Notes under the pieces: generated by a model
Told to the model about the DNA's origin: nothing
Database searches by the model: none
What the model saw: the letters and a program-made list of their open reading frames with translations, nothing else
Program-made: the position numbers and the translations under genes
IMG/VR virus record: IMGVR_UViG_2541047938_000006
From: a virus
Taxonomy: Duplodnaviria; Heunggongvirae; Uroviricota; Caudoviricetes
DNA length: 64,000 bases
Reading direction: 5' to 3' (one strand)
Shown here: positions 22,917 through 25,506 of the stretch, one piece after another
Position numbering within the stretch: the stretch's first letter is position 1
How the letters are laid out: each line of letters opens with the position of its first letter

Positions 22917-22943
22917 CGGGGAGCATGTTGCTCCCCTTTTTTT
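22917..22943 (+). terminator. Intrinsic terminator oriented antisense to late operon
   Basis: Hairpin CGGGGAGCATGTTGCTCCCC followed by TTTTTTT on plus strand. Confidence 0.45.
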
Positions 22944-23070
22944 ACTGCATTACCACCGCAGCTGTAGCAACAAGAGCCAGCACACCACCAAGCCACACAA
23001 ACAGCATGAAACACATTGCGCCTGTGGTGTAACGCTTTCTCCCGTATCTCCGGTCTCTGTCTTTGTTCAT
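22942..23070 (-). CDS. Small basic membrane protein (about 43 aa)
   Basis: MMNKDRDRRYGRKRYTTGAMCFMLFVWLGGVLALVATAAVVMQ; RBS AAGGTG 6 nt upstream; one TM helix. Confidence 0.3.
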   Translation of the reverse strand: MNKDRDRRYGRKRYTTGAMCFMLFVWLGGVLALVATAAVVMQ

Positions 23071-23123
23071 CATCTGCACCTTCTGAATCATCAGAAGATG
23101 CCGCGCATCCGGCAGGACCGCCA

Positions 23124-23594
23124 TCAGGCACCAACAAGCCGTCTGACGCTCACACCATACAGCCCGTTTTTCGCCATTCCCGTATACAGAAAGGTATTCA
23201 CCGTCTTTGTGTTAATACCCATCTCACTGGCAAGGCGGCAGGGTCTCGACTGGCGGTAGACATAACCGAACATCACCACCATCTCTGACATCGTCAGCGG
23301 GCGGGCAGCACTGTTATACGTCCAGACGCCGTTGTGTATGGCATCACTTATCTGCTCACCATCGCGGAGCAACTCCGCATCCAGTTGCAGAAAATGACGC
23401 CCCTGGAACATACAGCGCATCAGCCTGCCCAGCAGGCCATCACTGATTATCAGCCAGGATTCGTCAAAGTCCGGGATATAACGGCGGTTCTCCGGCAGGA
23501 AAAACTCCCTCGCCAGTATCACACTGTGCCCCTTCAGTAACGCCTGCAGACCATACTCCAGATAGCGGTTCCTGGTAGCCAGAATCACCTTCAT
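23124..23594 (-). CDS. LuxR/FixJ-type HTH transcriptional regulator
   Basis: C-terminal segment LTMSEMVVMFGYVYRQSRPCRLASEMGINTKTVNTFLYTGMAKNG fits the LuxR-type HTH pattern; sits immediately downstream of eib. Confidence 0.5.
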   Translation of the reverse strand: MKVILATRNRYLEYGLQALLKGHSVILAREFFLPENRRYIPDFDESWLIISDGLLGRLMRCMFQGRHFLQLDAELLRDGEQISDAIHNGVWTYNSAARPLTMSEMVVMFGYVYRQSRPCRLASEMGINTKTVNTFLYTGMAKNGLYGVSVRRLVGA

Positions 23595-23682
23595 CGCAGC
23601 ACCTTCCTGTTTTTTATGCCCCATGAAAAACGGCAGACCAGAGTCCTGCGCCTGCCGCCATACTTCATGTCACTTTCAGCAA

Positions 23683-25143
23683 TTAAAACTCGAAGTTAAC
23701 GCCCATGTTGTAGGACACATCGCCATCACTCGCTGCAATACCCGCTTTCGCTGCGGTCTGCTCGTTGAAACGGTAACCAACACCCACGGCAACAGCCTGT
23801 TTATCACTGTACCCCCCCAGGGCAGCAGTGGCGTTGAATTTCCCCACACTGTACGGCTGGAAAAGCCCCGCCAGCGCTGCACTCTGTGCTGCTGCACGCT
23901 TCATCTCTTCGTGATTCTCACGAATTTGACGCTGCTGGCTGTTCAGGCGTGCATTATGCTCCTGCAACTGGCGAGTATTGGACTGAATAGCCTGTGTATT
24001 TTTAGTAACCCGGCGGTCAACGCTACCAACTGCATAATCAATACGGTCTGTTCTGCCAGACAGAGCAACGAGACCATCATTGACGGCGATAGTTTTAGTC
24101 GCACCTTCTGCACGGGTAAGTTTTCCGTCAGGGTTCACACCAACTGTCGTTCTGGAGTCTGTATATTCACGAGACTTTTTCGCTTCGACTACAAGGCGGG
24201 TATTCGTATCCTGAGCCAGTTGCTCAACACTGTCTTTTACACGGTCAACCTGACGAACGGTTGCAGCATCTGAGGGACGAGTACCGTCACTCAGACCACC
24301 AAGCACCCGGGTTTTATAAGCCTTACCCGGCTCTGCTTCATAACCGATATAAACCTCATTGTCACGGGTTGTGCGTGAATTAGCTCCTAATGCAACACTG
24401 TTTTTATTTGTTACTGTTGCCTTTGCCCCTAACGCAGTACCTTCTGTTGCATCTTTATCAACTTTGGCTCGGTTACCTGCTGCCGTGCCATATATAGCCG
24501 TGTTATCAACAAATGCAACGCTTCCCAGGGCTGTAGATGCATTTGCATAAGCATATGTTCCCACTCCCAGAGCTGTACTTTGTTTACCGTCCGCAGCAGC
24601 CCATGAGCCCACTGCTGTTGACGCTTTTTCTGTAGCCCTAGCACCGTTACCAACAGCTACTGAGAACTCACCAGAGGCTTTCGCATCGCTACCCAGAGAA
24701 ACCTTCCCATTCTCCCCATCTTCGACGCTGAAACCTGTAATTTCTGTTTTTTCCAGGCCATACACCTTGTTGTACACGCCACGAACATCACTGTTTATCA
24801 GCTTGTGACCTGTTTTACCCTCAACAGCCTTTGCAAAATCTTTCAGCGCCGGGTCATGAAGTGTATGGGTGATACCCTTACCTTTAACGGTCACATTACC
24901 TTTTGAATCAAATGTGAAAAGTGACCTCTTCTTGTCGTTTTTCTCTTTTACTTCGTATCTGAAGTTACCATTACCGCCTGTCTTTACAACTTCATAGGTG
25001 CTGCCATATTTAGCCTGTCCGCTCTTCGGCGAATCATCCTGCAACACTGAATATGTACCATTCTGCGCACTCACCCCACCACTCATCACCAGAAGCCCGG
25101 CCAGAGAAGATGACAGGAGTGTCATTGTAAACTTTTTACTCAT
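23683..25143 (-). CDS. eib: Eib-family immunoglobulin-binding trimeric autotransporter adhesin (YadA-like)
   Basis: 486-aa ORF with signal peptide, repetitive neck/stalk, coiled coil and C-terminal YadA-type anchor ...[37 protein letters not shown]-rich upstream region. Confidence 0.8.
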
Positions 25144-25506
25144 TATGGATATCCTGTTAAATTATCTGTATACAAATCAGCCGCAACACCTCACACTCAT
25201 AAAAAAGTCTGATTAATTACGGCTTTTTTCAGGATATTCCGGAAATAAATTTAAAAATTAATTTCATAAATTTAGGATTTGTCTTACATTATTCTGGGCA
25301 TACCTGCTCACGCATACGACCACACCGCCGGAACAGATATCAGAAAAAACTTACCCCAGTCAGACTTGCTGTTTCACATCTGCTTACACTGTAATTTGTG
25401 AACAAAATTACAACATCAGAAAAAATTAACTATTCAGTTAACATAAAATATTTACAGGAGGAATAGTTCATGAGGGAAAGAAATGTTTCCCCCATATTTT
25501 TATCTG

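Follow-up and report, generated by a model that had tools for sequence, protein, structure and literature searches.

What kind of element lies between the tail genes of this prophage, which adhesin allele does it carry, and how would that adhesin be regulated? The window, a 64,000-nucleotide stretch of tailed-phage DNA (Caudoviricetes; IMG/VR record IMGVR_UViG_2541047938_000006), had been read from its letters alone, and this sequence-only reading placed an immunoglobulin-binding adhesin (eib) cassette at positions 22942–25506 and took it for a host-interaction moron. My analysis supports that view. Very probably, this is a cassette for lysogenic conversion (a "moron") among the late genes of a short-tailed, 933W-like E. 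coli prophage beside ynfF, as argued by its Eib-family protein, a known prophage layout, an AT-rich spacer before eib and a hairpin after it; immunoglobulin binding, an eib promoter and regulation by ORF-156 or by an IbrAB-like pair are putative. The moron features seen are the 33% G+C spacer and the terminator-like hairpin after eib, and the sigma-70 scans returned no convincing promoter.

The cassette and its setting

The genes are arranged in the order tfa-like ORF-191, eib, ORF-156, ORF-60 and an L0124-like gene. This is the order found in the deposited phages P-EibC and P-EibD of E. coli ECOR-9 (GenBank AF151674 and AF151675), to which the region is 87.0% and 91.5% identical in DNA sequence, respectively, and the same layout is present in phage PhiR12_3 and in E. 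coli JNEC-KY173. The upstream border is the ORF-191-type, tfa-like gene (25507–26094, minus strand), identified from Pfam (DUF4376, E = 9.1e-19), phrog_1141 ('tail fiber protein', E = 3.1e-79) and its position, which is that of orf-191C/D/E in GenBank AF151674-6. The mechanical ORF extends to 26214, with translation likely beginning at position 26094 (MNMNVEK). With a collagen-repeat tail fibre and this DUF4376 gene upstream, and an L0124-like virion gene and a Phage_Tail_Tip gene downstream, the cassette does sit between tail fibre/tfa genes and further tail genes. The location is therefore confirmed, but the description of the cassette as "inserted" there is better replaced by that of a variable cargo slot, since cor and other genes fill the equivalent position in Stx2 phage 86. 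Homology to that phage is lost at about 22962–27213, so the variable segment also spans the tfa-like gene and the distal tail fibre gene. The prophage bears an IS insertion, and its tail-fibre gene appears frameshifted near a G-run at about 27221; it may be defective, an observation that is neutral on eib expression.

A plus-strand intrinsic terminator opposing the late operon had been proposed at 22917–22943. Scanning and folding located it at 22918–22943 (plus strand), as a G+C-rich 8-bp hairpin, GGGGAGCA-TGT-TGCTCCCC, followed by TTTTTTT and pointing against the late genes. The hairpin and its T-run are real; as the minus-strand copy has A7 before the hairpin and GACCAGAAG after it, the terminator is one-directional, in line with the sequence-only reading. 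As a candidate border of the cassette it was rejected: the hairpin is found in the eib-less Stx2 phage 86 and in many Stx phages, positions 22800–22953 are 95.5% identical to eib-less Stx phages, and it thus belongs to the phage backbone.

The eib gene (23683–25143, minus strand) encodes a YadA-type trimeric autotransporter adhesin of 486 residues, identified by Pfam and PDB searches and by alignment to known alleles. Pfam YadA_anchor matches residues 428–486 (E = 2.3e-15, 56.8 bits against a cut-off of 22.7), and YadA_head matches five stretches of the protein above its cut-off (E = 5e-13). In the PDB search, the EibD head-stalk crystal structure 2xqh matches residues 150–395 (E = 1.8e-106), and the YadA anchor structure 2lme matches the C-terminus (E = 1.1e-17); on the NCBIfam YadA model the protein scores 108 bits, below the cut-off of 750. 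A C-terminal four-strand anchor, head repeats, a coiled-coil stalk and a signal peptide, the elements of a type Vc autotransporter, are all present, and the N-terminal Sec signal peptide has the same sequence as in EibC/D/E. The gene was thus correctly recognized as Eib-type, and the C-terminal anchor, the point at which this identification could have failed, falls within the YadA-type family.

Alignment to EibA, C, D, E and G, which had been suggested as a way of assigning the allele, gave overall identities of 86.9% to EibE, 85.3% to EibD, 78.1% to EibC, 70% to EibG and 52% to EibA. These figures are unevenly distributed along the protein. The head (residues 121–260) is 99% identical to EibD, residues 261–330 are 93% identical to EibE, and the stalk and anchor (residues 331–486) are 100% identical to EibE, while the N-terminal segment 27–120 is only 80% identical to EibD and 61% to EibE. 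The allele is therefore neither EibD nor EibE but a recombinant of both types, a mosaic whose head is of the EibD type and whose neck, coiled-coil stalk and YadA anchor are of the EibE type. Public data already contain this exact protein.

From these domains, Eib would be exported by Sec, and its C-terminal four-strand units would build a trimeric, 12-strand outer-membrane barrel. The passenger would display a lollipop made of a YadA-like beta-roll head, a neck or saddle, and a coiled-coil stalk. The stalk would bind IgG Fc without immune specificity, and the fibre as a whole would favour serum resistance and cell-cell or cell-host adhesion.

At the other end of the cassette, ORF-60 (22942–23124, minus strand) encodes a small basic peptide with a hydrophobic C-terminus and a single predicted membrane span, which would be a small membrane peptide beside ORF-156. 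It can be read as 60 codons, coupled to ORF-156 by overlapping its stop (TGATG), or as 43 codons from ATGATG at 23073. The 43-codon basic membrane peptide noted earlier corresponds to the last 43 codons of the longer frame, MMNKDRDRRYGRKRY... followed by a 24-residue hydrophobic stretch, and has seven K/R versus two D/E among its first 18 residues. In PHROGs, phrog_9340, a 43-residue profile of unknown function, matches ORF-60 residues 18–60. The genes orf-60A/C/D are annotated in GenBank, and no curated family was matched in Pfam (E<=0.01 and E<=10), NCBIfam (E<=0.01) or PADLOC (E<=0.001).

ORF-156 and an IbrAB-like pair as candidate regulators

ORF-156 (23124–23594, minus strand, 156 residues) is a putative transcription factor, on the basis of a fold model and weak profile matches. 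Its open frame spans 23124–23624 and would give 166 residues from the first ATG; the ATG at 23594 is the likely start because it is preceded by AGGAAGG and the deposited orf-156 genes are equally long. The label "LuxR-type" given by the sequence-only reading agrees with the fold and with the weak profile matches, but not with curated families: searches of Pfam even at E<=10, NCBIfam at E<=0.01 and PADLOC at E<=0.001 gave no match. In PHROGs, the protein matches phrog_6585, of unknown function.

The AlphaFold2 model (pLDDT 89.3, pTM 0.84) has helices at residues 102–113, 118–125, 129–142 and 150–153. The top 36 Foldseek matches in the PDB are all regulators combining a receiver-type domain with a LuxR-type HTH, and the fold resembles RcsB/EvgA/FixJ-type regulators; the E-values run from about 2e-3 to 3.8e-2, none being <=1e-3, with probabilities of 0.41–0.99. 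A profile of ORF-156 searched against PDB sequences retrieved solely VqmA and GerE, both LuxR-type and both weak (E 0.13–0.27), and hhalign against RcsA/BglJ/YjjQ/MatA aligned the HTH only (E = 8.4e-4 for a single comparison, probability 24%). The receiver signature residues (an acidic pair after beta1, a phospho-acceptor Asp after beta3, Thr/Ser after beta4 and Lys after beta5) are not present as a set in the N-terminal domain. The model and these matches indicate that ORF-156 would start with a small alpha/beta domain resembling a degenerate receiver and end in a four-helix HTH of the LuxR/FixJ type.

In lambda-like prophages ORF-156 directly follows the YadA-type gene, as seen for eibA, eibG and the locus of the homologue P0019, and the same order recurs in one other type of prophage and on a contig that is plasmid-like. 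Overall, the adhesin-then-ORF-156 order, with a spacer of 80–90 nt, persists in four genetic contexts, even where protein identity falls to 66%. The link is not absolute, because two orphan homologues (55% and 63% identity) lie beside hpaBC and kpsF, away from any adhesin gene. Probably, ORF-156 binds DNA as a LuxR/FixJ-type protein lacking a functional phospho-acceptor site, and it may act as a cognate regulator travelling with the adhesin gene.

I consider it quite possible, though not probable, that ORF-156 does not regulate eib at all, and instead has another phage or host target or is a hitch-hiker inherited along with the adhesin gene's 3' end. The orphan homologues at hpaBC and kpsF fit this alternative, as do the missing curated family match and the terminator-like hairpin that would separate eib and ORF-156 transcriptionally. 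It also fits that the published evidence for an eib activator, as cited in PMC7649339, is for IbrAB only. Against it stand the order and spacing conserved over the four contexts, and the resemblance of the fold to RcsB/EvgA/FixJ-type regulators.

IbrAB-dependent activation of eib (Sandt et al. 2002, as cited in PMC7649339) is relevant here, as the phage had been said to encode ibrAB as putative activators. Elsewhere in the prophage, at its opposite end, an ibrA-like gene (3489–4715, plus strand) encodes a PAPS-reductase domain and DUF3440 (Pfam DUF3440 5.2e-33, PAPS_reduct 1.5e-16; phrog_2302 5.8e-86). It overlaps by 16 nt an ibrB-like gene (4700–5344, plus strand) for a ParB N-terminal-domain protein (phrog_2159 'ParB-like partition protein', 4.9e-91). 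RefSeq names the two products 'phosphoadenosine phosphosulfate reductase' and 'IbrB-like domain-containing protein', the latter name also being used in UniRef. The pair at 3489–5344 thus has the domain make-up and adjacency of IbrA and IbrB, and is ibrAB-like by these features and by RefSeq naming. The pair is a putative regulator of eib.

Returning to ORF-156 as a possible cognate regulator, its closest functional parallels may be auxiliary FixJ/LuxR-type regulators of E. coli, RcsA, BglJ and MatA, which activate H-NS-silenced, AT-rich loci for surface structures (PMC3950696). Like these, ORF-156 would have a receiver-related N-terminal domain without phospho-acceptor chemistry and a C-terminal FixJ/LuxR-type HTH. 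It differs in its length (156 residues versus about 200–225), in showing similarity over the HTH only, and in falling below any curated LuxR/GerE model. I tentatively propose, with more doubt than confidence, that ORF-156 represents a family of LuxR/FixJ-type regulators with a pseudo-receiver, so far unannotated and apparently confined to E. coli, found with YadA-type adhesins on prophages and plasmids and as orphans beside kps capsule and hpa genes. Such a protein may relieve silencing of the AT-rich eib promoter, perhaps in the manner of RcsA/BglJ/MatA and possibly together with RcsB or IbrAB. If true, this anti-silencing would explain the induction of Eib in static, stationary-phase cultures at 37 C.

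Transcription of eib

The region upstream of eib had been described as visibly AT-rich, and this is borne out by its composition: the 363-bp spacer (25144–25506, minus strand) has 33.3% G+C, against 48.8% for eib and 50.3% for the window. This presumed promoter or regulatory region is nearly identical in P-EibC/D/E, PhiR12_3 and KY173, and is partly conserved upstream of eibA, GER2 and one lambda-like locus. An inverted-repeat scan identified a palindrome, TGTAATTT-N7-AAATTACA, at 25390–25412, among the conserved islands of the spacer; a further island spans 25229–25241. Another conserved island contains the RcsAB-box-like sequence TAAGACAAATCCTA (25273–25286), which I do not claim as a site, as the motif occurs at chance level (with <=3 mismatches, 4 found versus 3.1 expected in the window, a count matched in 37/100 shuffles). 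Two scans for a sigma-70 promoter upstream of eib on the minus strand gave none at >=8/12, and 7/12 candidates only. GenBank annotates a stem-loop about 100 nt upstream of eibC/D/E; the corresponding stretch here, 25200–25290, folds no better than shuffles (z = +0.54). No Rfam family was found within 22942–25506.

Between eib and ORF-156, a scan matched an intrinsic-terminator-like hairpin with a T5 run (23626–23659, minus strand). It has a folding energy of -28.8 kcal/mol (z = -3.39, with 0/200 shuffles equally stable), and a stem_loop is annotated at the equivalent place in P-EibA/C/D/E in GenBank. A weak promoter within the AT-rich spacer, dependent on an activator, would most likely be the origin of transcription, which would mostly end at this hairpin and T-run 3' of eib; in the lytic cycle, late transcription under antitermination would pass through the whole region. 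Eib expression is low and condition-dependent (PMC5450701, PMC4352079), and its regulation has been described as complex and unresolved (PMC5450701). The lack of a sigma-70 match of >=8/12 is consistent with this low expression and with the published IbrAB-dependent activation.

The same lack of a good sigma-70 promoter, and the placement of all genes from 41947 down to 5433 on one strand, could also mean that eib is expressed mainly as an antiterminated passenger of the late operon upon prophage induction, without a lysogen promoter of its own. This is unlikely, as Eib is produced in uninduced static, stationary-phase cultures (PMC5450701, PMC4352079), and eibG cloned with only a 168-bp upstream region complemented a deletion, although a contribution of vector promoters was not excluded in that experiment (PMC13534694). 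The spacer is, in addition, both conserved and AT-rich, and a fold test found a hairpin 3' of the tfa-like gene that precedes eib.

Predicted immunoglobulin binding and relation to known systems

In the stalk, D369 and Y370 of Eib align with EibG D391 and EibD Y388, and lie within a segment of 32 residues that is identical in EibC/D/E. The EibG substitution D391A abolished Fc binding (PMC13534694), and the residues reported as required for IgG Fc binding are retained here. That this protein is a relative providing adhesion, chain formation and serum resistance without binding immunoglobulin, as with ClaA and ClaB, close EibG relatives that lost Fc binding and kept other functions (PMC13534694), is very improbable given that the mapped Fc-binding stalk segment lies within residues 331–486, where identity is 100% to EibE, a protein labelled immunoglobulin-binding in its deposited record, and that the 32-residue segment shared with EibC/D/E keeps D369 and Y370. 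Since this allele has a stalk and anchor of the EibE type beneath its EibD-type head, it is expected to bind IgG Fc as EibE does. With such a stalk, it presumably does not bind IgA.

The nearest known systems are EibD and EibE (ECOR-9 phages P-EibD and P-EibE, AF151675 and AF151676; EibD structures 2XQH and 2XZR), which share the family, the signal peptide and the order orf-191, eib, hairpin, orf-156, orf-60 and L0124-like gene. The window allele is only 85–87% identical to these overall, with the head of EibD and the stalk and anchor of EibE. EibG (LEE-negative STEC, JNEC-KY208) is essentially identical from about residue 207 onward, through neck, stalk and anchor, and its locus likewise has an ORF-156 homologue (69% identity) after the adhesin gene and a DUF4376 tfa-like gene before it. 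However, EibG is 70% identical overall, with another N-terminal region and head start, and its gene is placed terminally in a lambda-like prophage (gpJ, Lom), where no orf-60 is annotated.

More distantly, YadA, the Yersinia prototype, has similar head repeats, coiled-coil stalk and four-strand-per-monomer anchor. YadA is plasmid-borne and binds collagen, whereas this Eib is phage-borne and is predicted to bind immunoglobulin Fc. As a probable moron, the eib cassette resembles lambda lom and bor in carrying an accessory surface-protein gene with atypical upstream composition and a putative terminator of its own, located between late genes and presumably dispensable for phage growth. In contrast to these, it has two extra small genes, and a recognisable consensus promoter was not found.

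A description of the eib cassette, with the ORFs around it and its place in the prophage, reportedly dates from 2000, and the cassette is ordinary, already known E. coli prophage cargo, which leaves knowledge of the family unchanged. In commensal and Shiga-toxin-producing E. coli, Eib proteins contribute to chain-like adherence, to serum resistance and to the non-immune binding of antibody; a prophage-borne Eib flags a horizontally mobile host-interaction trait. The recombinant of EibD head and EibE stalk exemplifies domain shuffling between eib genes. ORF-156 is annotated as hypothetical everywhere, and as a predicted LuxR/FixJ-like protein it provides a concrete candidate in the regulation of Eib.

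The eib cassette and its place in the prophage

In the ORF map of the window, every sizeable gene between 5433 and 41947 is on the minus strand, and this stretch is the late (virion) region of the prophage, which adjoins the host gene ynfF (18–2117). The backbone is of the 933W-like short-tailed Stx phage type, and carries an N4-gp56-type capsid protein, a portal protein, and a 2792-codon ORF (6108–14486) that is the counterpart of an LPD5-domain giant protein in the closest relative. Read along the minus strand, a tail-fibre gene with collagen-like repeats (Pfam Collagen, Phage_fiber_2 and phage_tail_N), present as two ORFs (26926–28176 and 26105–26968), is followed by a tail-fibre-assembly-like DUF4376 gene (25507–26094), a 363-bp spacer, the 486-codon eib (23683–25143), a hairpin with a T-run, the 156-codon ORF-156 gene (23124–23594), the 60-codon ORF-60 gene (22942–23124), a second hairpin, a 567-codon gene matching phrog_511 'internal virion protein' (21136–22839), and a Phage_Tail_Tip gene (19871–21139). 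Downstream of the eib cassette, at a distance of a few kb, the late region has a second cargo gene for a surface protein, an Ail/Lom-family outer-membrane beta-barrel (18135–18872, minus strand).

Two genes of this prophage are split in the sequence. The tail-fibre gene (26105–28176, minus strand) is a single CDS in GER2, PhiR12_3 and JNEC-KY173; here, a G-run (ccGGGGGGcc) at about 27215–27225 is one nucleotide shorter and breaks the frame. Either the gene is truly inactivated by this frameshift, or the deletion is an error made in sequencing the homopolymer. An IS21-family element (41935–44494; istA-like 42128–43669, istB-like 43681–44430) splits a SASA-family carbohydrate esterase gene, intact in JNEC-KY173, into halves at 44488–45429 and 40838–41947.

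The gene order orf-191, eib, stem-loop, orf-156, orf-60 and L0124-like gene is shared with P-EibD, P-EibC and P-EibE, the GenBank records of E. coli ECOR-9 phages, to which the region is 91.5%, 87.0% and 85.7% identical in DNA, respectively. The arrangement also matches that of phage PhiR12_3 and of the E. coli JNEC-KY173 prophage. In a comparison with Stx2 phage 86, which lacks eib, homology is interrupted from ∼22962 to 27213, and that phage fills the slot with the distal part of a tail fibre, a tfa-like gene, cor and 'orf24'. This places the cassette in a cargo slot that varies among phages of this type, and it is not a unique insertion. The sequence-only reading had described it as inserted between the tail fibre/tfa genes and further tail genes; the position stands, and the insertion gives way to the cargo slot.

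The hairpin 3′ of eib (23631–23659, followed by T5; −28.8 kcal/mol, z = −3.39) is marked in the GenBank records too, and is consistent with a terminator for the eib unit. The second hairpin (22918–22943) reads GGGGAGCA-TGT-TGCTCCCC followed by T7 on the plus strand; on the minus strand it has A7 before and GACCAGAAG after, which points to a one-way, plus-strand terminator-like element, in agreement with the intrinsic terminator previously proposed at 22917–22943 and directed against the late operon. Since many Stx phages without eib share the DNA around it at 95.5% identity, and Stx2 phage 86 also has this hairpin, it belongs to the phage backbone. A weaker hairpin (25470–25495), directly after the tfa-like gene, has a T-run on the plus strand and an A-run on the minus strand. 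The two share the same reversed polarity, so that the cassette is bracketed by two plus-strand-oriented terminator-like sites.

Allele and predicted binding of the Eib protein

The 486-aa product matches YadA_head (5e-13) and YadA_anchor (2.3e-15, residues 428–486), both above the Pfam cut-offs, and aligns to two structures, EibD (crystal structure 2xqh, 1.8e-106) and the YadA anchor (2lme, 1.1e-17), as expected of the Eib-type trimeric autotransporter proposed earlier. The C-terminal anchor is thus of the YadA family, and the outcome named beforehand as refuting that proposal, an anchor outside this family, did not arise. Over its full length, the protein is 86.9% identical to EibE, 85.3% to EibD, 78.1% to EibC, 70% to EibG and 52% to EibA. 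Alignment to these five, part of the check proposed to assign the allele, gives a more composite picture by segment: residues 121–260 (the beta-roll head) are 99% identical to EibD, residues 261–330 are 93% identical to EibE (57% to EibD), and residues 331–486 (stalk and anchor) are 100% identical to EibE. By this segment-wise comparison the allele is a recombinant, with an EibD-type head and an EibE-type stalk and anchor.

A 32-residue stalk segment is identical to that of EibC, EibD and EibE, and includes D369 and Y370, the counterparts of EibG D391 and EibD Y388. IgG Fc binding is strongly predicted for this allele, because the segment and both residues are conserved and the EibG D391A mutation is reported to abolish Fc binding (2026 study, PMC13534694). 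An identical protein is already in a public assembly, NCBI labels variants with 97–99% identity as 'YadA-like family protein', and 1404 relatives are found at E ≤ 1e-30. EibE reportedly binds IgG but not IgA, and by analogy I would expect this allele to bind IgG and not IgA. The element was first described in 2000, the structure of a relative has been solved, and publication on the subject is active; the sequence-only reading of the element was correct and well made.

The eib upstream region and the ibrAB-like pair

The spacer upstream of eib is AT-rich, as had been noted, with 33.3% G+C compared to 50.3% for the window. A scan for sigma-70 promoters upstream of eib gave no match of at least 8/12. 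This fits published work, in which Eib is expressed at low levels, more so in static culture, in stationary phase and at 37 °C (PMC4352079, PMC5450701), and in which ibrAB increases its expression (Sandt et al., 2002, cited in PMC7649339). The spacer is almost invariant across eibC/D/E-type loci, with short islands shared with diverged loci. One island resembles the RcsAB box (consensus TaAGaatatTCctA; PMC3950696); in the window, matches of this kind are no commoner than chance predicts, and as a candidate site it is an idea only. A perfect 8-bp inverted repeat at 25390–25412, TGTAATTT-N7-AAATTACA, is a possible operator; loci of the eibC/D/E type retain it, and a lambda-like locus retains part of it.

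The putative activators ibrAB, said to be encoded on the same phage, are represented by an ibrA-like gene (PAPS reductase and DUF3440) and an ibrB-like gene (ParB N-terminal domain) at 3489–5344, at the ynfF end of the prophage, and the claim holds at the level of domain make-up. The IbrA-like protein also gives weak PADLOC matches to BrxP and DndC. The pair lies in the terminal accessory block of the prophage, within 1–5957, with an AntA-type antirepressor gene (2657–3292) and a SocA/Panacea antitoxin-domain gene (5433–5957, minus strand). Rfam matches, counted above the gathering score, place one copy of sRNA-Xcc1 between ynfF and the prophage antA (2528–2616), and two copies of STnc100 downstream of the esterase gene (45631–46309). 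A C4 antisense RNA with its a1/b1 targets and isrK (49950–50148) adjoin an antirepressor gene (49222–49896), which suggests P1/P7-type c4-ant immunity.

ORF-60 and ORF-156

In GenBank, orf-60 has 60 codons, with its start codon and the stop codon of ORF-156 overlapping as TGATG. A PHROGs family of 43 residues matches residues 18–60, and in this form the first 18 residues include 7 K/R and 2 D/E, followed by 24 hydrophobic residues. The 43-codon basic membrane peptide called earlier is therefore sound, and the 60-codon reading is equally real. In Stx2 phage 86, 'orf24' (6088–6234), compared with 22942–23073 of the window, shows KKRYTAG...FVWLG...VMMQ in a second frame, and looks like a frameshifted, shortened ORF-60-type remnant, reading through the conserved hairpin. 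As this phage lacks eib, ORF-60-like genes may occur in the cargo slot independently of it.

None of the curated libraries searched recognises ORF-156, and all 44 of its homologue clusters with an organism label are from E. coli, the named ones as 'hypothetical protein'. Its AlphaFold2 model (26 sequences) is confident (pLDDT 89.3, pTM 0.84) and consists of a four-stranded alpha/beta domain, then four helices. Each of the top 36 Foldseek matches in the PDB is a regulator that combines a receiver-type domain with a LuxR-type HTH, among them LiaR, FixJ, RcsB, EvgA, StyR, DesR, VraR and VpsT, with E values of about 2e-3 to 3.8e-2, none at E ≤ 1e-3, and probabilities of 0.41–0.99. A profile search of PDB sequences returned LuxR-type HTH chains only (VqmA, GerE), in the correct place, at E 0.13–0.27. 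With hhalign, 53 columns at the C-terminus align in register (LTxxE ... KTV) with an alignment of E. coli RcsA/BglJ/YjjQ/MatA, at E 8.4e-4. Because of these matches, the earlier label of 'LuxR-type regulator' is reasonable at the level of the predicted fold and weak profile matches, short of demonstrated family membership.

The gene neighbourhood adds support to the regulator reading. A homologue of ORF-156 directly follows eibA, eibC, eibD and eibE, and one with 69% identity follows eibG; homologues are also encoded after a YadA-type gene in lambda-like prophages (P0019), in another prophage type, and on a plasmid-like contig with ccdAB. Two more distant homologues are orphans in E. coli chromosomes, one adjacent to hpaBC (loci L009–L012, 55%) and one upstream of kpsF (loci L027–L029, 63%), where it immediately precedes the group 2 capsule (kps) region; at both loci, no YadA-type gene lies within 4–5 kb. 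Only two of these points are absent from the literature searched, the assignment of ORF-156 at the level of fold and its conserved position next to YadA-type genes, and both may bear on how Eib is regulated.
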